Shown: piece after piece, positions 15,945-62,539 of the stretch
How the letters are laid out: each line of letters opens with the position of its first letter
Position numbering within the stretch: position 1 is the stretch's first letter
Sequence record: NC_054924.1
Source of the DNA: Escherichia phage vB_EcoM_Lutter
Strand: one strand, 5' to 3'
Length of the DNA stretch: 64,000 nt
The notes under the pieces: generated by a model
What the model was told of the DNA's origin: nothing
Seen by the model: only the letters and a program-made list of their open reading frames with translations
The model's database searches: none
Position numbers and translations under genes: made by a program

Positions 15945-15948
15945 CAAC

Positions 15949-15978
15949 GGGGACCTTTCGGTCCCCATATTTTTATTT
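15949..15978 (+). terminator. Rho-independent terminator after gene 54
   Basis: ggggacctttcggtcccc hairpin followed by a T-run. Confidence 0.7.
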
Positions 15979-16263
15979 GCGGAATGAAATGAAAGCAGAA
16001 ACTGAAGCAACTAAACTGTCTTCAATATAAACTTCAATTTTTACCGGAGCTTCTGACTCAAATTTACCTGTTACTACACCCTGAAAAATACTTTCAGTCT
16101 GTTCTGGCTTTGAAAAATTTTCAGAAGGAAAAATTCCGAACTTTTTATCTGTTCCGAAAATTTTGATAAATTCATCATAAACTGCTTCGTTAAAAGCATT
16201 ATCAGCAGGAATAACGCCTTCAACTACAAGTTCTTGACCTAAAAAGCGTAAAGAAGATTTCAT
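15973..16263 (-). CDS. Hypothetical protein downstream of alt (alt.-3-like position)
   Basis: 96 aa ORF with an RBS (GAGGAA) and the repeated early-promoter module immediately upstream. Confidence 0.55.
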   Translation of the reverse strand: MKSSLRFLGQELVVEGVIPADNAFNEAVYDEFIKIFGTDKKFGIFPSENFSKPEQTESIFQGVVTGKFESEAPVKIEVYIEDSLVASVSAFISFRK

Positions 16264-16270
16264 TTTGTGT

Positions 16271-16324
16271 TCCTCATGTTATGTCAGTAAGACTACTATA
16301 ACACAACACGAGGGACTTGTAAAC
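16271..16324. repeat. 54-bp promoter/leader module, copy 1 (identical to 30548..30601)
   Basis: Exact 54-nt identity with the second locus; contains GTTTAC and TATAGT hexamers on the minus strand. Confidence 0.9.
16295..16324 (-). promoter_or_regulatory. Early sigma70-type promoter (GTTTAC ... TATAGT)
   Basis: -35 GTTTAC and -10 TATAGT on the minus strand, upstream of ORF 15973..16263. Confidence 0.6.
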
Positions 16325-16680
16325 TACATTTTGAACTTTTTAGTACGCGTAATAGGCATGCGTCAATTTTATACTGTTTCATTGTTTGAAGAGCAGTATC
16401 AAAAACAGCATTAATGACGCCAATTGGATTTCCACCCAAGTTTTTAAGTTTAACTAATGATAGTTTCTCATTAACACCTATCATTACGATATGCATCATT
16501 TTGTCGCCTGGTTTAACGTTTTATCTGTATCACCGCCAGAGGTGTATGTACAAAATCTAAATCCAGGAAGCACGCTTTCTTCGCCGGCTTGAATAGCAAA
16601 AATTTGTGGTATTTTATGCTTAGGATTTAAGTTAACAACCGGCGCCGAAGCGCCGTCAAATAATTATGTAATAAGTTCCA
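16296..16680 (-). pseudogene. Decayed partial duplicate of the alt 5' region (alt paralog remnant; T4 alt.-1/alt.-2-like)
   Basis: DNA and protein similarity to alt codons ~1-120 (MMHIVMIGVNEKLSLVKLKNLGGNPIGVINAVF vs MMHIVPFTLTAKGSIAKLKGLGPSPINYINSVF); the copy of the first codons reads MELIT then stop; frame broken. Confidence 0.7.
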
Positions 16681-16684
16681 TGAT

Positions 16685-18781
16685 TTATCCTTGAACGAAC
16701 TTGTAAGGCATGTTTGCAATATCTATGCAAGACGCAATAATTCCAAGAGATGATTCTACTTTCTGTTTAACATTTGATGAAACAAATGATGCAAAGTCAA
16801 CTCTGTCTTCTATTTCAATATCACCTGTCATTGCAACCAATTCACCAGTTTCCATTAAATGGTCTCCATCATAGATTACCGATTCGGTGAGCTCTTCCGT
16901 GGTCATAACTTCAGCTTGAATGAGTTTTGTATTATTAGATGTTGTTCCGTCATTATTAGAAGCATCAGTTATTTTATTAACTTTGACCATCAATCCACGC
17001 GGTAGAATAACTTCAGCTTCTGTTGCTATTCCGAGACTTCCTGGATATACAACATTAACTTTATGAGCTCCATCAATTGCCCATCCTATTTGAACTTTAA
17101 CGTATTCAGGATTTTCTTTATACGCTCTTATTTCGTTTGGATTAATAGTTATTCCTTCTTCATTTTTATCAACTGTTAATTCATTGCGAGCTTCTGGTTC
17201 TAAAAGACCAATACCAGCATGTGTAATTCCAAAACGTCCAAAAATGATAGGAGTTAAAGAAGTAGATACAAAATTTCTGAAATAGAATACTTTATTTTTA
17301 ACTAGTGCTTCGTATATAGGAGCAGTCATACTTTGAGCACGATAAACTGTAATGCCTTCTGGTATACGATCACCATTTTCAAAAGCAGAATCTAAATTAG
17401 TTATAGCAGCTTCAATTTCTTTTTCACTCATTACTTCATAACGTTCTGGATCATAACGACCCAAAAGAAGATTATTGATGTCAGTATATCCTGAACCGCA
17501 ATACTCTCTAATGCCACGCTTTTGTGATGGAGTATATTTAGAACCATCACGGGCAATAGTAATATCAATCATTGGACCTGCACCAATTCCAGAGAAACTA
17601 TAAATCATTCTTTTGAGGAATTTAGTTTTTGTCGCGTTCCAGGAATTTTTAGTTATTTCTTCCCAGACTTCATCTGGCTGTCCTTTACGGGTTTTATTAT
17701 GTTTATCAAGCCAAGTATCTTTATATTCTTCAAATAATTGATTAACAGCTGCTGCGTATTTCTCTAAACATTTTATTGAAGTAGTCGGTTCATTTTTAAT
17801 CGCATTAAGAATTACATCTTTAATTTTTTCAGAAACTTCATTAACCTCACTTTTTGAAAAGAATTTATAGTCATAATGAAGTTCATCTGCAGTTCCTTCG
17901 GCAATGATTTTTGCTGCCTTAGTTTTAGAAGCTAATGAATTAATTCCAATTTTCATTTCTTCTGCTTCGGGAATTAAAGGTGCAGTAGCTGGTTTATTAA
18001 AATTAGCTGCTGTAGATTCATACTTCTGGAATAATTCACTTTCAAATCTAGAAGACTCTAATGATTGACTTTGTGCAATTGCTCTACGGGAAATTTTAAC
18101 TTTAACGATTACAGCTTGGTCAGAACGTTTATCATTTTCTTGTGCAATAGATGCTGCAATTGCCTCATTTTTAGTTACTTGAGCTCCAGTATCTTTATTG
18201 ATATAAACATCACCGACCTTCGATTCAACTTTAGTAAAGAGCTCAGTACTAATTTCCGGAACCCCTGGAATGTCTTCTAGTGATACATTTTTGCGATGTA
18301 TAAGAATATATGCATACTTTTTATCATAATCCCAGAGTTCCTTAAGAAGGACGTATCTGCCACCTGAACGACTACGGATAAGTCTATCAGCAATAACTTG
18401 AATTTGTCGAGCTTGACCAGCAGTTTTAGACTTAAGAATACGGAGCATACAGGCATCAATTTTATACTGACGCATTGTTTGCATTGCAACAGTAAAAACC
18501 GAATTGATATAATTAATTGGGCTTGGACCAAGACCTTTCAATTTAGCAATTGAACCTTTAGCGGTTAATGTAAAAGGAACAATATGCATCATTTTATCGC
18601 CCATCTTTAAATCGCGATTAGTATCACCTCCAGATGTATAGGTACATAAACGAAAACCTGGTTGTTCAATTGCGTCATCAACATGAACTGAAAAAATTTG
18701 TGGTATTTTCTTCTTTGGATTTAAGTTTGTAATTGGAAGAGTAGTATCTTCGTCAAATAATTCTGTAATTAGTTCCATCAT
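16685..18781 (-). CDS. alt: Alt, virion-packaged ADP-ribosyltransferase
   Basis: 698 aa; sequence and position between gene 54 and gene 30. Confidence 0.85.
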   Translation of the reverse strand: MMELITELFDEDTTLPITNLNPKKKIPQIFSVHVDDAIEQPGFRLCTYTSGGDTNRDLKMGDKMMHIVPFTLTAKGSIAKLKGLGPSPINYINSVFTVAMQTMRQYKIDACMLRILKSKTAGQARQIQVIADRLIRSRSGGRYVLLKELWDYDKKYAYILIHRKNVSLEDIPGVPEISTELFTKVESKVGDVYINKDTGAQVTKNEAIAASIAQENDKRSDQAVIVKVKISRRAIAQSQSLESSRFESELFQKYESTAANFNKPATAPLIPEAEEMKIGINSLASKTKAAKIIAEGTADELHYDYKFFSKSEVNEVSEKIKDVILNAIKNEPTTSIKCLEKYAAAVNQLFEEYKDTWLDKHNKTRKGQPDEVWEEITKNSWNATKTKFLKRMIYSFSGIGAGPMIDITIARDGSKYTPSQKRGIREYCGSGYTDINNLLLGRYDPERYEVMSEKEIEAAITNLDSAFENGDRIPEGITVYRAQSMTAPIYEALVKNKVFYFRNFVSTSLTPIIFGRFGITHAGIGLLEPEARNELTVDKNEEGITINPNEIRAYKENPEYVKVQIGWAIDGAHKVNVVYPGSLGIATEAEVILPRGLMVKVNKITDASNNDGTTSNNTKLIQAEVMTTEELTESVIYDGDHLMETGELVAMTGDIEIEDRVDFASFVSSNVKQKVESSLGIIASCIDIANMPYKFVQG

Positions 18782-22761: not shown

Positions 22762-23139
22762 TTAAATATCAAATTCGTTAAGAACTACATCAAAGATTGC
22801 TTCCAAGTGCTCAGGTTTAGCTTTGTTACTCAGAATATGACGAATCCAAGTTTTAACTAAGAGTTTACGATTAGCACCATTCCAGCAAGGATGAGTCCCT
22901 AAATCACGTTGACGGAAATCATCATCCAGAGCGATTTTAAAGTTGGAACCTTCCATCGTGATTGAAACCGTGATACCGTTTTCAAATCGCATATAAACGT
23001 AGTTAGGAGTCATATACTGTTCGATTTCGCATACTGATCCATTTTGATGTTTCCAAAGGCAGATGGTATCAATAGAACCTGCAATACCATTAGAAACATA
23101 TTTACGTTCAAAGTTAATGTAGTTCATTTTATTCTCCAA
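22762..23139 (-). CDS. Hypothetical protein
   Basis: 125 aa ORF preceded by an early promoter. Confidence 0.55.
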   Translation of the reverse strand: MENKMNYINFERKYVSNGIAGSIDTICLWKHQNGSVCEIEQYMTPNYVYMRFENGITVSITMEGSNFKIALDDDFRQRDLGTHPCWNGANRKLLVKTWIRHILSNKAKPEHLEAIFDVVLNEFDI

Positions 23140-23163
23140 GATGTTTAATTGCGGTACAGGTAT

Positions 23164-23192
23164 ATAATATCATGTCCTGTACCAAAGTAAAC
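23164..23192 (-). promoter_or_regulatory. Early promoter (GTTTAC ... TATTAT)
   Basis: -35 and -10 hexamers on the minus strand. Confidence 0.55.
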
Positions 23193-23527: not shown

Positions 23528-23554
23528 TTTATTCTCCTTTGTTTGTGTAAGATA

Positions 23555-23584
23555 ATACTATCACAAAGGAACCATACTGTAAAC
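23555..23584 (-). promoter_or_regulatory. Early promoter (GTTTAC ... TAGTAT)
   Basis: -35 and -10 hexamers on the minus strand. Confidence 0.5.
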
Positions 23585-26695: not shown

Positions 26696-27216
26696 GTTGA
26701 TCCCAGCTCCTTACTTTCAACGTTTTTAACTAATTTGACAGAAACTAATTCAGCATCTTGAGTAATCATTACCGGGCCTTCTTCATACTCTTCAAGATAT
26801 TCTAGAGCTTTCTTTTTAGCTTCTTCCTTCGTATCAGTTTGAGCATAGATATAAAACATACAACCAGTAATACCTACTACTTTCCACTTAATTTCTTTAT
26901 CAGTTTTAATTTCAAATTTACTGACAGAATCATCTTTTTGAACTTCTTCGAAAAAAGAATATTCTAACATATAAGCAATTGAAAATAACGGGCTAACTTT
27001 ATAAGATTCGCCCATTACATCAACAGCTTTATACCAACAATCATCAATTTCGCGTTTAATGCTAATAACATTTTTCGCAGGATCTATTTTTACTTTAAAT
27101 GAATTTTCCCCAATAAACTGGGCAATTCGTTTATTAGCCCCGCAAGTTTCATTAAAAATATCTTTATATCCAGCTTTAAAGCGATAAACCTTATCTTCTT
27201 CAAACCATTCGCTCAT
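26689..27216 (-). CDS. Hypothetical protein
   Basis: 175 aa ORF preceded by an early promoter-like GTTTAC/TATTAT pair. Confidence 0.55.
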   Translation of the reverse strand: MSEWFEEDKVYRFKAGYKDIFNETCGANKRIAQFIGENSFKVKIDPAKNVISIKREIDDCWYKAVDVMGESYKVSPLFSIAYMLEYSFFEEVQKDDSVSKFEIKTDKEIKWKVVGITGCMFYIYAQTDTKEEAKKKALEYLEEYEEGPVMITQDAELVSVKLVKNVESKELGSTC

Positions 27217-27278
27217 TTCAATTTCCTCATTTGTTTTGGTAGAGCTATAATATCACAACTCTACCGTAAAGTAAACTA

Positions 27279-29696: not shown

Positions 29697-30046
29697 TTAG
29701 AAAGGTCCTGGATGTCTTCTGCGAACTTGTTGAAGGAGTTGTTGATTTGTTTTTCAACCAATCCTGGCTTATGAGCCACCACATCCGCCTTCTTTGCGTC
29801 TTTGCGCAGTTTTTCATTTTCACGCTCAATAGCAGCAATTGCCTCACGATTTTTATTATTCATCGCATCAATATAATTATACTGAATTCGCAAATTGTTT
29901 AATGCTAAAGCGTTTTCATTGGCCGTTTTTGTAATTTCTACAACAGACGTTTCTAATCTTTCAATTTTATTTTTTAAAATTAAAGAAGTTCCGCCCAATG
30001 CAATTACAATTAATAGCAAACCTGTTGTCGTATTACTTAATTGCAT
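29693..30046 (-). CDS. Inner-membrane spanin (i-spanin; T4 pseT.3-like)
   Basis: 117 aa; N-terminal transmembrane helix followed by a predicted coiled coil; overlaps the o-spanin start. Confidence 0.65.
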   Translation of the reverse strand: MQLSNTTTGLLLIVIALGGTSLILKNKIERLETSVVEITKTANENALALNNLRIQYNYIDAMNNKNREAIAAIERENEKLRKDAKKADVVAHKPGLVEKQINNSFNKFAEDIQDLSK

Positions 30047-30540
30047 AAAGTTTTAATAACCTCTATAATATCGTCTTGAGAAAGACCGTTAATTAAAATA
30101 TGATGTTCCGCCGGAGATTTAGAAATTTTAAAGCATGCCGCAACATCTTCTGCCATATCTGATGCACTACGATTTGGATTACTAATCCCAAGGCGGTGTT
30201 TTCCCGTTAAAGGATTAACGATGATATAGCATTTACAGTTGTTAATATGAACATTAGGTTGAGTCTGATTAATGAACACATCACAATCATATTTCGCAAG
30301 CTGATTTTCTAAAAAGACTTTCATCTCCTCAACCGCATCAGGAAGCATATCACGGGCTTGCTCAAGACGACGATTTCGATATTCTTTAATGGTCGTTTTC
30401 CGCTTGACTTGCTTAGCTAAATCTTTCTTAAGATCGGTGATATATCCAACTCGACGATTTCCTTTGAATACAAAAATCCCATCTGTAGTATCACCGTATG
30501 CTTCAACGACCATTTCAGTAGTAATAAGTTGTAAATCCAT
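30037..30540 (-). CDS. alc: Alc, inhibitor of host transcription on cytosine-containing DNA
   Basis: 167 aa from the second Met; position between the pseT cluster and rnlA. Confidence 0.7.
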   Translation of the reverse strand: MDLQLITTEMVVEAYGDTTDGIFVFKGNRRVGYITDLKKDLAKQVKRKTTIKEYRNRRLEQARDMLPDAVEEMKVFLENQLAKYDCDVFINQTQPNVHINNCKCYIIVNPLTGKHRLGISNPNRSASDMAEDVAACFKISKSPAEHHILINGLSQDDIIEVIKTLCN

Positions 30541-30547
30541 CATAAAG

Positions 30548-30601
30548 TCCTCATGTTATGTCAGTAAGACTACTATAACACAACACGAGGGACTTGTAAA
30601 C
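30548..30601. repeat. 54-bp promoter/leader module, copy 2 (identical to 16271..16324)
   Basis: Exact identity to copy 1. Confidence 0.9.
30572..30601 (-). promoter_or_regulatory. Early promoter (GTTTAC ... TATAGT) upstream of alc
   Basis: Same hexamers as copy 1. Confidence 0.6.
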
Positions 30602-30604
30602 AGC

Positions 30605-32192
<1,588 letters not shown>

Positions 32193-40981: not shown

Positions 40982-41003
40982 CAGCAGTATTGCCGATAGT
41001 TGT

Positions 41004-41033
41004 ATAGTACCATAAAGCTTTATGCTTGTAAAC
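41004..41033 (-). promoter_or_regulatory. Early promoter of the conserved family (GTTTAC ... TACTATACAACTATC)
   Basis: Shares extended identity with the promoters at 58287, 61427 and 61933. Confidence 0.6.
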
Positions 41034-41050
41034 CGTTTTGTGAAAAAATT

Positions 41051-41083
41051 TTTGAAATAAAAAAGGGGACCTCTAGGGTCCCC
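41051..41083 (-). terminator. Rho-independent terminator after gene 32
   Basis: ggggacctctagggtcccc hairpin followed on the minus strand by TTTTTTATTTCA. Confidence 0.7.
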
Positions 41084-58245: not shown

Positions 58246-58286
58246 TTTCTAATCTCCGTAATTCTGTATCAGTAGTTGATAGTTGT

Positions 58287-58316
58287 ATAGTACCACAGTA
58301 TGCTTTGGTTGTAAAC
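58287..58316 (-). promoter_or_regulatory. Early promoter of the conserved family upstream of motA
   Basis: GTTTAC ... TACTATACAACTATCAACTAC on the minus strand. Confidence 0.6.
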
Positions 58317-58335
58317 CGTTTTGTGAAAAAATTTT

Positions 58336-58366
58336 AAAATAAAAAAGGGAGAGCCTCGGCTCTCCC
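58336..58366 (-). terminator. Rho-independent terminator
   Basis: gggagagcctcggctctccc hairpin followed on the minus strand by TTTTTTATTTT. Confidence 0.7.
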
Positions 58367-61298: not shown

Positions 61299-61397
61299 AG
61301 TAAACGTTTAATACATCAATCATTAAAACGATTGGGAATATACTCAAAACTATTAGTATTATAACTACATTCCATATAGCTTTAACAATCTTTTTCA
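61285..61397 (-). CDS. Small membrane peptide (37 aa)
   Basis: Start at MKKIVKAIWNVVIILIVLSIF... with GGAGG RBS directly downstream of an early promoter; the 82-aa track ORF overlaps that promoter and is rejected. Confidence 0.45.
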
Positions 61398-61426
61398 TTT
61401 TCTGTTCCTCCGTAGTTGATAGTTGT

Positions 61427-61456
61427 ATAGTACCACAGAGGAACAGTCTTGTAAAC
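61427..61456 (-). promoter_or_regulatory. Early promoter of the conserved family
   Basis: GTTTAC ... TACTATACAACTATCAACTACGGAGG on the minus strand. Confidence 0.6.
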
Positions 61457-61641
61457 AACTTTTTTAAAAATATTCGTAATAAATGTGAATACCAACTACT
61501 ACCGCTGAAACCTGTGCAACCCACCACGCACAAGCAATAAGTACAGAATTCAAAATTTTCATAATAACCTCATCACAAAAGTAAATGTTAAACAAATTAA
61601 TGGAATACTAATTAACCAAACAAAACACCACCATAATGAAC

Positions 61642-61905
61642 TCATAGTTCAATCTCAATGATTTCCAGGTGTTTTTGTTTTATTGCCTTTTTAACACAAT
61701 CATGGACTAAATATGACCATGAATCATTATATTCTCCATTAACTAATCGTTGGAGATCTTCACGTGATGATAAGTAAGGTTGATCTGATTCCCATTTTGA
61801 TAAAAATACTGCAGTAAAAATATCTCCTTCACCTGTAGTTGAAGTCGTAAATGCAATAAATTCACCGGTAATTTTATGTTTAGCGTAATAAAATTTAAAT
61901 TTCAT
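61642..61905 (-). CDS. Hypothetical protein
   Basis: 87 aa ORF with GGAGG RBS after an early promoter. Confidence 0.5.
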   Translation of the reverse strand: MKFKFYYAKHKITGEFIAFTTSTTGEGDIFTAVFLSKWESDQPYLSSREDLQRLVNGEYNDSWSYLVHDCVKKAIKQKHLEIIEIEL

Positions 61906-61932
61906 TTTTACTCCTCCGTAGCTGATAGTTGT

Positions 61933-61962
61933 ATAGTACCACGGTCCTTGTGGTATGTAAAC
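61933..61962 (-). promoter_or_regulatory. Early promoter of the conserved family
   Basis: GTTTAC ... TACTATACAACTATCAGCTACGGAGG on the minus strand. Confidence 0.6.
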
Positions 61963-61981
61963 TGTTTTGTGAAAAAATTTT

Positions 61982-62539
61982 TTAAATGGAAAGATACCAT
62001 CCGTTGTAGTTGCTTTTTCTTACAACCTTACGAAGGTCTTCTCTGTCACCGATGAACTTCGGAGTGTACTGGATGACACCTGAATGAATTTCTTTAGTGT
62101 TGAATATAATTATACAGTCAGCGACTTGATGATTTAGAATGGGCCCTAGATTTATTCCAGAACCGTATGGATACTCTCCGCTGCATCCTGTTGTTACAGA
62201 AATCCAACGTGAGTCAGTTTGGTGTGTCTTAACTTCTACACGAAGCCCGCAGTATCTTGGATGCGCCAATACATCCCATGCGTATGTATACGGGTCATTA
62301 ACATCCTCTTGGCCTTTATTGACATATCCGCTTAGCCAATCTGCTACAAAAAACTCTGCGTACACAGCGATACGGCATCTTTCGATAACTTCTGCCTTAT
62401 CCTGATTCGGATTTTGTTTTAAAGAGTATCTTGCTGTATCAGCAATTTTGACCTTCATTTCACTAGTCAAGTCACTGTTCGATAGGGTAAATGTCGGAAT
62501 CTGAAATAGTCTCTGTAAACCCGGATTCGTTTTCTGCAT
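61982..62539 (-). CDS. denB: DenB, endonuclease IV (cytosine-DNA-specific)
   Basis: 185 aa; position between ndd and rIIB. Confidence 0.8.
   Translation of the reverse strand: MQKTNPGLQRLFQIPTFTLSNSDLTSEMKVKIADTARYSLKQNPNQDKAEVIERCRIAVYAEFFVADWLSGYVNKGQEDVNDPYTYAWDVLAHPRYCGLRVEVKTHQTDSRWISVTTGCSGEYPYGSGINLGPILNHQVADCIIIFNTKEIHSGVIQYTPKFIGDREDLRKVVRKSNYNGWYLSI

Follow-up and report, generated by a model that had tools for sequence, protein, structure and literature searches.

Why does a T4-like phage carry the same 54 nucleotides, base for base, in front of two genes that lie 14 kb apart, and what does the shared sequence do for these genes? Taken by itself, a promoter repeated within a T4-like genome and belonging to a known class of cassettes is an ordinary finding. 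T4 is the reference phage, alc is a key host-takeover gene, and the switch-off of early expression is only partly understood. We asked what each part of the repeat contains, how far it is conserved, and how it came to stand at two loci.

The window in this report is the whole 64,000-nt stretch of Escherichia phage vB_EcoM_Lutter (NC_054924.1) that was analyzed. Compared with phage genomes, the region is 97-99% identical to many Tequatrovirus (top match vB_EcoM_FJ1, 99.4%), and judging from this identity, the window is Tequatrovirus DNA.

A direct repeat that fills two intergenic regions

The 54-mer TCCTCATGTTATGTCAGTAAGACTACTATAACACAACACGAGGGACTTGTAAAC was confirmed to have two exact occurrences in the window, and only two (16271-16324 and 30548-30601); these are the positions given in a preliminary description of this DNA. 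The copies show 0 mismatches, and both lie on the + strand as written, i.e., they are direct repeats. No such match arose in dinucleotide-preserving shuffles (0/100), and a repeat search of the window recovered the pair as family D5 with a spacing of 14277 nt. Read on the minus strand, the 54-nt unit is GTTTACAAGTCCCTCGTGTTGTGTTATAGTAGTCTTACTGACATAACATGAGGA, and the identity runs from the G of GTTTAC to the A of GAGGA with abrupt ends on both sides. The flanks are unrelated between the copies (upstream ...AAAATGTA vs ...ACTAAGCT; downstream ACACAAAATG vs CTTTATGATG). The copies and the genes around them are as follows.

16271..16324, minus strand: 54-nt cassette copy 1, upstream of alt.-3 (exact match; T4 annotation of the homologous region)
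15973..16263, minus strand: alt.-3, 96 aa, the gene fed by copy 1 (ORF list; T4 annotation; homologues)
16296..16684, minus strand: degenerate 5' duplicate of alt, T4 alt.-1/alt.-2 (repeats D3 and D13 against alt; ORFs; T4 RefSeq note)
30548..30601, minus strand: 54-nt cassette copy 2, upstream of alc (exact match; ORFs)
30037..30543, minus strand: alc, inhibitor of host transcription, ORF of 168 aa, fed by copy 2 (ORF list; T4 annotation; tblastn)
30605..31729, minus strand: rnlA (gene 63), upstream of copy 2 (ORF list; T4 annotation); the end coordinate 31729 assumes a gene of T4 length, 1125 nt

The two ORFs that the copies had been said to feed are as described, the one at 15973-16263 being T4 alt.-3 and the one at 30037-30543 being alc. 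The start of alc in the T4 annotation is the second ATG, at 30540. The gene alt.-3 is uncharacterized and was recently linked to escape from the CmdTAC defence.

At the alc locus, the TAA of rnlA is followed by 3 nt and then by the 54-mer, and at the alt.-3 locus of T6, PP01, and KIT03, the TAG of a full-length alt paralogue overlaps the G of GTTTAC. At both genes, the GAGGA that ends the 54-mer stands 7 nt before the ATG. [quoted passage not shown] In the window, copy 1 fills the gap between the remnant of the alt paralogue (an alt.-2-like ORF) and the SD of alt.-3. According to the T4 RefSeq record (NC_000866), alt.-2/alt.-1 is an old duplication of the first part of alt; this paralogue is full-length in T6, PP01, KIT03, SA20RB, and Shfl2, and truncated in T4, ACG-C40, and the window. 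We rejected the idea that the end of the truncated duplicate is the edge of the 54-mer, since the ~20 nt upstream of the 54-mer (CTAAAAAGTTCAAAATGTA) also stand in phages with a full-length paralogue.

An exact-match search in related phages, which the preliminary description had proposed, found the 54-mer in 498 phage records at 995 places, i.e., about two per genome, with T4, T6, RB32, RB33, and PP01 among them. In T4 (NC_000866), the alc copy is identical to that of the window and the alt.-3 copy differs by 1 base, G40A (53/54 between the T4 copies). The 54-mer is therefore a genus-wide feature, not a peculiarity of the Lutter isolate. The duplication had been taken to be recent, and this did not hold: it is common to essentially the whole genus, with later re-homogenisation in some genomes.

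The predicted early promoter in each copy

Each copy carries a predicted sigma-70 early promoter on the minus strand, where the preliminary description had read a promoter and leader; a promoter scan scored the site 10/12 with TG at both copies, and together with the position of GAGGA given above, this supports that reading.

16295..16323, minus strand: sigma-70 early promoter, copy 1 (promoter scan, 10/12 with TG); -35 TTTACA 16323-16318, 17-nt spacer, TG of the extended -10 at 16303-16302, -10 TATAGT 16300-16295; predicted start near 16288 (T4 123057), from the -10 spacing
30572..30600, minus strand: sigma-70 early promoter, copy 2 (promoter scan, 10/12 with TG); -35 TTTACA 30600-30595, -10 TATAGT 30577-30572; predicted start near 30565 (T4 136300)

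In each 1-kb region scanned, no promoter-like site scored higher than the string TTTACA-17-TGnTATAGT. It departs once from TTTACW-N17-TAYWAT, by the G at position 5 of the -10 box. The box itself varies: the window has TATAGT, several alc copies read TACAGT, and PP01 and UFV10 have TATAAT. Upstream of the alt.-3 copy, the adjoining 20 nt have an A+T content of 80%, and an A/T-rich run lies further upstream at alc; both are in coding sequence, outside the repeat.

Published T4 omics place alc and alt.-3 among the early genes in both RNA and protein, alt.-1/-2 RNA in the middle period, and alt RNA and RnlA protein in the late period. The early timing of alt.-3, compared with the later alt.-1/-2 and alt, is indirect evidence that the alt.-3 copy acts as a promoter of its own. 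Upstream there are middle promoters (PnrdB, PI-TevIII, and P30), but directly before alc or alt.-3 there is none, so that read-through RNA should exist at these genes. Two other readings of the leader and promoter were dropped, one as a RegB (GGAG) site, because the SD is GAGGA without GGAG, and one as a MotA box, because there is no TGCTT box at -30.

A predicted hairpin that joins the promoter spacer to the SD

The promoter-leader reading was largely right and yet incomplete, as it missed both a hairpin that joins the promoter spacer to the SD and the published class of promoter-early stem-loop (PeSL) cassettes of T4-type phages (Arbiol et al., 2010, PMC2839356; Comeau et al., 2014, PMC4122927). 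In the sense RNA, the promoter spacer contributes module positions 12-25, and these pair with leader positions 40-53, which include GAGG. The stem of 14 bp is lengthened by a 4-bp apical extension and 2-6 closing pairs, the 5' arm covering positions 9-25, and the loop region holds the -10 box (positions 25-30) and the predicted +1 (near position 37). The arms lie as follows.

16300..16313, minus strand: hairpin 5' arm, copy 1 (CCUCGUGUUGUGUU), in the promoter spacer, upstream of the predicted start (RNA fold, z = -3.7; pairing scan)
16272..16285, minus strand: hairpin 3' arm, copy 1 (GACAUAACAUGAGG), contains the SD (GAGGA 16275-16271) (RNA fold; SD accessibility)
30577..30590, minus strand: hairpin 5' arm, copy 2 (RNA fold, z = -3.6)
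30549..30562, minus strand: hairpin 3' arm, copy 2, contains the SD (GAGGA 30552-30548) (RNA fold; SD accessibility)

The predicted fold depends on where the RNA begins. Read-through RNA folds with -25.6 kcal/mol at alt.-3 and -31.3 kcal/mol at alc (z = -3.7 and -3.6), while RNA from the predicted start reaches only -2.2 (alt.-3) and -1.8 (alc) kcal/mol, no better than shuffles. Within 284 nt of read-through RNA, the SD has a predicted probability of ~0 of being unpaired. Opening the stretch from SD to AUG is calculated to cost 14.9 and 15.3 kcal/mol in read-through RNA vs 2.3 and 3.2 kcal/mol in promoter-initiated RNA. The stems of Tequatrovirus contain three G.U pairs, which are A.C mismatches on the other strand. 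An Rfam search of the whole window at the gathering score gave 0 matches, and a literature search for a hairpin at alc or alt.-3 found nothing specific; an earlier mention in published tabulations of Pe and PeSL sequences is possible.

A stable hairpin at both copies might also be a terminator or attenuator of upstream transcription, in which case its overlap with the SD would be incidental and the cassette would insulate alc and alt.-3. Actually, one PeSL stem-loop of RB49 cuts lacZ read-through as strongly as rrnB T1, and the same role was proposed for all PeSL stem-loops (Arbiol et al., 2010). In addition, the GenBank record of SA20RB annotates the alt.-3 copy as a rho-independent terminator, a WebGeSTer prediction. 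However, no U-tract follows the stem at either copy (AACACAAAAUG and CUUUAUGAUGG), and a terminator scan of the minus strand gave no site at either copy, yet the gene 54/alt.-3 terminator nearby was detected. In the other genera described below, the sequence after the 3' arm is A-rich, with nothing like the U-tract of a terminator, and termination would leave unexplained why the SD forms the 3' arm in at least 15 lineages. We consider it unlikely that termination is what this stem-loop is for.

Other roles in the RNA can be considered, namely those of an RNase III-type processing site, a 3'-end stabiliser of the rnlA or alt messages, or a translational coupler opened by upstream ribosomes. The stem with its extensions comes to ~20 bp with a small internal loop, and the hairpin begins 3-10 nt past the upstream stop codon, both of which would suit processing or coupling. 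In favor of coupling, the alt.-2 remnant ORF of T4 and of the window ends inside the loop. In the window, the last ORF of the degenerate alt duplicate (16296-16499) runs on across the 5' arm and ends within the -10 box, so that ribosomes on the alt.-2 ORF would open this arm. The stem might likewise be melted in part by ribosomes that terminate at the upstream stop, which would give coupling rather than silencing. However, judging from the size of its footprint, a ribosome at the stop codon of rnlA or of the full-length alt paralogue would reach the bottom few pairs only. No data on cleavage of this hairpin were found, and arms that include the SD are needless for a pure processing or stability element. 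All of these roles seem to us rather improbable, and we prefer to read the hairpin as a structure that hides the SD on read-through RNA.

Conservation and covariation of the hairpin upstream of alc

The regions upstream of alc were compared in 7 other genera and at 43 IMG/VR loci found with an Alc alignment. Alignment-based scans of IMG/VR were needed to collect the alc and alt.-3 loci; an anchored-pattern scan returned 23 stretches, about half of them chance matches, and single-protein scans returned 5 loci each. The same layout, i.e., GTTTACA, a 5' arm, the -10 box, and a complementary 3' arm that contains the SD, was found upstream of alc in at least 15 distinct lineages, including Karamvirus, Gelderlandvirus, Dhakavirus, Marfavirus, and Klebsiella phages. 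Arm sequences change from lineage to lineage, yet each pair remains complementary (UCUCCAUUUGGUU/AACCAAAUGGAGA, UCCUCAUCAG/CUGAUGAGGA, CCUCGUUUGUU/AACAAACGAGG, and CCCUCUCGUUUUUG/CAAAAACGAGAGG).

When the halves of the hairpin were swapped between lineages, cognate halves paired with a mean of -19.4 kcal/mol vs -10.4 kcal/mol for non-cognate halves, and the cognate sum was reached in 0/100000 permutations. When 38 distinct sense rows were aligned with a covariance model, canonical pairs made up 92.4% of the pair cells vs 72% in shuffles (0/1000 reached the observed value), although these shuffle statistics overstate the significance because the alignment was fitted to the structure and the sequences are related. 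Both sides of the pair had changed in 12/17 pairs of the same alignment. With MAFFT and then RNAalifold, 24 upstream regions yielded no common structure, since the register of the arms shifts from genus to genus.

Within Tequatrovirus, the substitutions in the stem mostly keep the pairing. C15T gives a U.G pair, G16A and G40A turn G.U into A-U, and the alt.-3 copy of GBLB0003 carries the compensatory pair C15T+G50A (U-A). Substitutions that break a pair are few (G16T, G18A, and G40T). A strand-asymmetry test for an action in RNA was negative overall, as sense and antisense folds of 18 sequences were equally stable (mean difference -0.2 kcal/mol, Wilcoxon p = 0.98), and by this test a role in DNA or in the antisense strand may also be considered; the sense strand was favored only in Tequatrovirus, through the G.U pairs, and at the promoter at position 61456 of the window.

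The layout also has its exceptions. In Tegunavirus (L045, L071, and L088) and at L084, the hairpin lies just 5' of the SD, not over it. In Mosigvirus (L044 and L077), alc is preceded by a short spacer hairpin only, without the long hairpin, and in Gaprivervirus, an extra ORF and no promoter is found upstream of alc. The case of Mosigvirus indicates that the alc hairpin is not universal.

Origin of the duplication and exchange between the loci

Outside Tequatrovirus, the module upstream of alt.-3 is of another kind, with GTTTACAA, a short spacer hairpin with a GGA-containing loop, and a free SD. Five lineage groups other than Tequatrovirus (JS98/WG01-type and VR5-type Dhaka-like phages; Marfavirus; the CIP9-like 175-kb group; the 170-kb Karamvirus-like group; and Gelderlandvirus) have a promoter module of its own at each of the two genes, the long SD-hiding hairpin at alc and the short spacer hairpin at alt.-3. 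The two regions are 62-74% identical in 11/12 genome pairs of these groups. The exception is a VR5-like phage, in which the 30-nt 3' half is identical at both loci and the whole module is 87% identical.

Because the alt.-3 module differs in the other lineages, the alt.-3 locus of Tequatrovirus appears to have acquired the alc module by ectopic gene conversion. When T4 is compared with Dhakavirus WG01 at alt.-3, the flanks are conserved, with TTCAAAATGTAGTTTACAA upstream and ACATGAGGA downstream, and only ~37 nt between them differ. The simplest reading of these sequences is that the alc module replaced an ancestral alt.-3 module in the Tequatrovirus ancestor. The event would have been an ectopic gene-conversion patch of ~37 bp, in the direction from alc to alt.-3, and its borders would be two microhomologies that were there before it, GTTTACAA and ACATGAGGA.

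Occasional conversion between the alc and alt.-3 copies would have gone on since the Tequatrovirus ancestor. Among 16 Tequatrovirus genomes, the pair is identical in 5/16, and the copies differ at 1-6 positions in the other 11/16, which indicates that homogenisation is only partial. In PP01 and in UFV10, both loci have the non-reference haplotype G29A+G32A. The haplotype G32A+C34T is found at alc in SA20RB and at alt.-3 in Shfl2, and G16A, T27C, and T33A are each found at either locus. The sharing of haplotypes between the loci indicates that exchange continues. Outside the genus, the alc region of Mosigvirus resembles the alt.-3 type; judging from this and from the shared 3' half of the VR5-like phage, the two intergenic regions have been exchanged more than once. 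Gene conversion or cassette-like spread of the unit, as suggested in the preliminary description, is thus supported both by the comparison of modules across genera and by the shared haplotypes.

Identity of this kind would need no copying if two strong early promoters had converged on one consensus. A long consensus is common to T4 early promoters, and other promoter families of the window are 60-80% alike (family D1). However, the identity includes the non-consensus 17-nt spacer and 17-nt leader, and it amounts to 54/54 in the window and 53/54 in T4. The two-site non-reference haplotypes common to both loci, together with the clearly different modules at the two loci in other genera, effectively refute convergence without copying, which we find hardly credible.

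Recombination between the copies had been predicted to invert or delete ~14 kb, and only the second of these outcomes stands. Since the copies are direct repeats, crossing-over between them would delete or duplicate 14.3 kb, without inversion. The interval contains alt, 30, rIII, 31, cd, and pseT (T4 annotation). Established T4 genetics shows genes 30 and 31 to be essential, and because the interval holds them, its deletion would be lethal. The repeat is about as long as the minimum for recombination, given that T4 needs only ~50 bp of homology according to Singer et al. (1982), as cited in Arbiol et al. (2010).

It may then be asked whether the inverted repeat acts at the level of DNA rather than of RNA. 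It could be a hotspot of recombination, form a cruciform, or bind a protein as a palindrome with the -10 box at its center, and the two copies would then serve mainly as substrates for PeSL-type recombination. The equal stability of sense and antisense folds outside Tequatrovirus would be expected of such an element. For RB49 and phi1, both recombination between PeSLs and mini-circles have been shown (Arbiol et al., 2010), and the repeated exchange of the module between alc and alt.-3 is of the same tendency. On the other hand, arms that differ between genera and yet remain complementary point to base pairing, not to a sequence-specific protein site. The three G.U pairs of the Tequatrovirus stems are mismatched on the other strand, and recombination between copies that flank a 14.3-kb interval with essential genes would give no viable deletions. 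A role at the level of DNA is in our opinion very unlikely, and the SD-hiding hairpin in the read-through RNA is the reading with which we proceed.

A proposed timer for Alc and Alt.-3 synthesis

We think it probable that the two copies are PeSL-type cassettes, that the alc module was copied to alt.-3, and that the hairpin ties the synthesis of Alc and Alt.-3 to immediate-early initiation. Transcripts from the internal promoter would begin inside the hairpin, without its 5' arm, and would be freely translated in the first minutes of infection. Longer read-through transcripts, i.e., the middle-mode nrdB-denA-rnlA RNA in the case of alc and the late alt RNA in the case of alt.-3, would carry the whole hairpin, so that the ribosome site of alc or alt.-3 would be closed on them. 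Synthesis of the two proteins would be tied to immediate-early initiation for the reason that the short RNA is open and the long RNA is closed. In this folding model, translation would be restricted to promoter-proximal transcripts.

More tentatively, we suggest that this is a conserved and so far undescribed post-transcriptional timer of T4-like phages, by which Alc, and in Tequatrovirus also Alt.-3, would be made only from immediate-early promoter-proximal transcripts. The ribosome sites would be silenced on the middle and late read-through RNAs of rnlA and alt, and several other early promoters (e.g., the one at position 61456 of the window) would behave alike.

If this is true, the position of the transcript start would be a means of limiting a protein to the opening minutes of infection without any factor, and part of the so-called PeSL "terminators" would be translational switches. 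The replacement at alt.-3 would be a clean natural example of a whole regulatory module moved by a ~40-bp conversion patch, and the conversion would have put alt.-3 under Alc-like control.

Comparison with known systems

T4 early promoters (Pe) form a class that is transcribed by unmodified host RNA polymerase straight after infection (Hinton, 2010, PMC2988021). The promoter in the 54-mer resembles this class in its GTTTAC(A) -35 element, 17-nt spacer, TGn extended -10, and near-consensus -10 box. It differs in that the A/T-rich UP-like sequence lies outside the 54 nt and is unlike between the two loci.

Concerted evolution by ectopic conversion in T4 is resembled in that the dispersed 54-mer copies are alike within genomes and share derived haplotypes, while the homogenisation of the 54-mer is incomplete, with differing copies in 11/16 genomes.

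PeSL cassettes consist of an upstream stop codon, an AT-rich stretch, a sigma-70-like early promoter, a stem-loop, and the SD and ATG (Arbiol et al., 2010; Comeau et al., 2014). Their T4/PST consensus is TTTACW-N17-TAYWAT, and the stem-loop falls into five position subclasses, one of which overlaps the -10 box. G.T pairs were noted in the stems, and PeSL copies recombine and mark sites of gene gain and loss (Arbiol et al., 2010; Comeau et al., 2014). The 54-mer likewise spans the distance between the upstream stop codon and the SD and has a sigma-70-like early promoter and a stem-loop overlapping the -10 box. Its copies share haplotypes between the loci, and copy 1 adjoins the variable alt paralogue. 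Judging from its structure, the 54-mer belongs to the PeSL kind. There are, however, three differences. First, the SD itself serves as the 3' arm, without a U-tract behind it, so that the terminator role proposed for PeSLs is not evident here. Second, the copies do not enclose a dispensable ORF; they stand 14 kb from each other with essential genes between them. Third, the exchange at alc and alt.-3 is the replacement of one module by another, not the shuffling of an ORF. The conserved SD-hiding hairpin around an early promoter may thus be a functional variant of PeSL, possibly an undescribed one.

The long transcripts of T4 e, soc, 49, and I-TevI sequester the SD or AUG in a helix, and an internal late promoter gives the translated RNA, which is without the 5' arm (Uzan and Miller, 2010, PMC3014915). 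Translation is thereby controlled in time without a protein factor, the silent RNAs being early or middle (Uzan and Miller, 2010). The genes alc and alt.-3 are absent from the cases treated in that review of post-transcriptional control in T4. The 54-mer is predicted to resemble these genes in both respects, with a hairpin that hides the SD on the long RNA and an internal promoter whose RNA is without the 5' arm. In contrast, its internal promoter is a sigma-70 early promoter without TATAAATA, the gp55 late motif, and the silent RNAs for alc and alt.-3 would be middle or late. Because the internal promoter is early and not late, the 54-mer is not a member of the e/soc/49/I-TevI family as this is defined, while the mechanism that we propose for it is the same. 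By this analogy, the alc/alt.-3 device would mirror that of the lysozyme gene (e).

The surroundings of the alt.-3 copy

The cassette copy ahead of alt.-3 lies beside a degenerate 5' copy of alt (alt.-1/alt.-2 of T4) that matches the beginning of alt (18621-18781) at 74-90% identity. In its place, T6, PP01, KIT03, GBLB0003, SA20RB, UFV10, and Shfl2 carry a full-length second alt gene of 2058 bp. The depositors of SA20RB annotated this cassette copy as a rho-independent terminator (a WebGeSTer prediction), not as a promoter. Genes 54 and alt.-3 converge on a hairpin, GGGGACCTTTCGGTCCCC, that resembles a bidirectional terminator and has a related copy at 2429-2444.

Features near alt.-3 (L-numbers are upstream regions of alc or alt.-3 fetched from other phages)
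16296-16684, degenerate 5' copy of alt
15947-15968, bidirectional terminator-like hairpin
L116:102-151 (record 118001-118050), annotated terminator, SA20RB alt.-3 copy

The shared leader

An ATG within the leader of the shared 54-nt cassette (AACAUGAGGA) starts a mini-ORF of 4-5 codons, which lacks its own SD and encodes MRNTK* ahead of alt.-3 and MRTL* ahead of alc. At both loci the TGA of the mini-ORF overlaps the main start codon (AUGA).

16261-16278, minus, leader mini-ORF, alt.-3
30541-30555, minus, leader mini-ORF, alc

Variants and exchange in other phages

In IMG/VR 2706795356, a genome of VR5 size, the alc and alt.-3 modules (L076:344-403 and L101:343-403) are identical over 30 nt, their 3' half (ACCTTACACAAACATGAGGAGAACATTATG), while the 5' halves are different; this is an independent partial exchange between the two loci. 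The alc copy of ACG-C40 (L118) has acquired a GAGGGA SD region through a 1-base insertion, which extends its predicted stem (-32.8 vs -24.4 kcal/mol). In Gaprivervirus (L042:221-500, L059, and L063), an additional ORF of 267 nt, annotated as "inhibitor of host transcription" and preceded on its 5' side by a G/C-rich terminator-like hairpin, is located between rnlA and alc; a GTTTAC promoter is absent, and an SD is covered by a small separate hairpin, GGUUCCAUCA...UGAUGAGGACC.

Outside Tequatrovirus, the spacer of the alt.-3 promoter contains a short conserved hairpin with a GGA loop and co-varying stems (e.g., CCACA-AGGA-UGUGG, ACACA-UGGA-UGUGU, and GCAC-AAGGAA-GUGC).

GGA-loop spacer hairpins
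L047:343-400, L048:340-400, L049:340-400, L051:340-400, alt.-3 upstream
L100-L111, L114-L115, about 343-400, alt.-3 upstream
L044, L077, L090, L091, alc upstream

ACAAGGAUGU fits the CsrA SELEX consensus, RUACARGGAUGU, and a second GGA is located ~35 nt downstream, within the SD. The hairpin could be a CsrA-type site, one that would exist on read-through RNA only; our literature search found no connection between CsrA and T4.

Other early promoters in the window

Further early promoters share the build of the cassette.

61397-61456, minus, early promoter with hairpin
61905-61962, early promoter with hairpin
23130-23192, early promoter with hairpin
27215-27276, early promoter with hairpin
23538-23584, early promoter with hairpin

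At the promoter at 61456, a stem of 15 bp (CUGUUCCUCUGUGGU/ACUACGGAGGAACAG; -23.2 kcal/mol in the predicted fold) pairs the spacer with the SD of an ORF for a small membrane protein; this ORF lies in the ndd/denB variable region. The promoters at 23192 and 27276 have the hairpin around the -10 box and a free SD. A repeat search of the window also identified four direct repeats of 75 nt, which form one family (identity 61-80%) and are early promoters with the common upstream sequence AAAAATTTTTTCACAAAACGGTTTACAAG...

40995-41069, 75-nt repeat
58278-58352, 75-nt repeat
61418-61492, 75-nt repeat
61924-61998, 75-nt repeat

This family probably represents classic PeSLs (promoter-early stem-loops), the published intergenic cassette class of T4-type phages, or early-promoter consensus regions.
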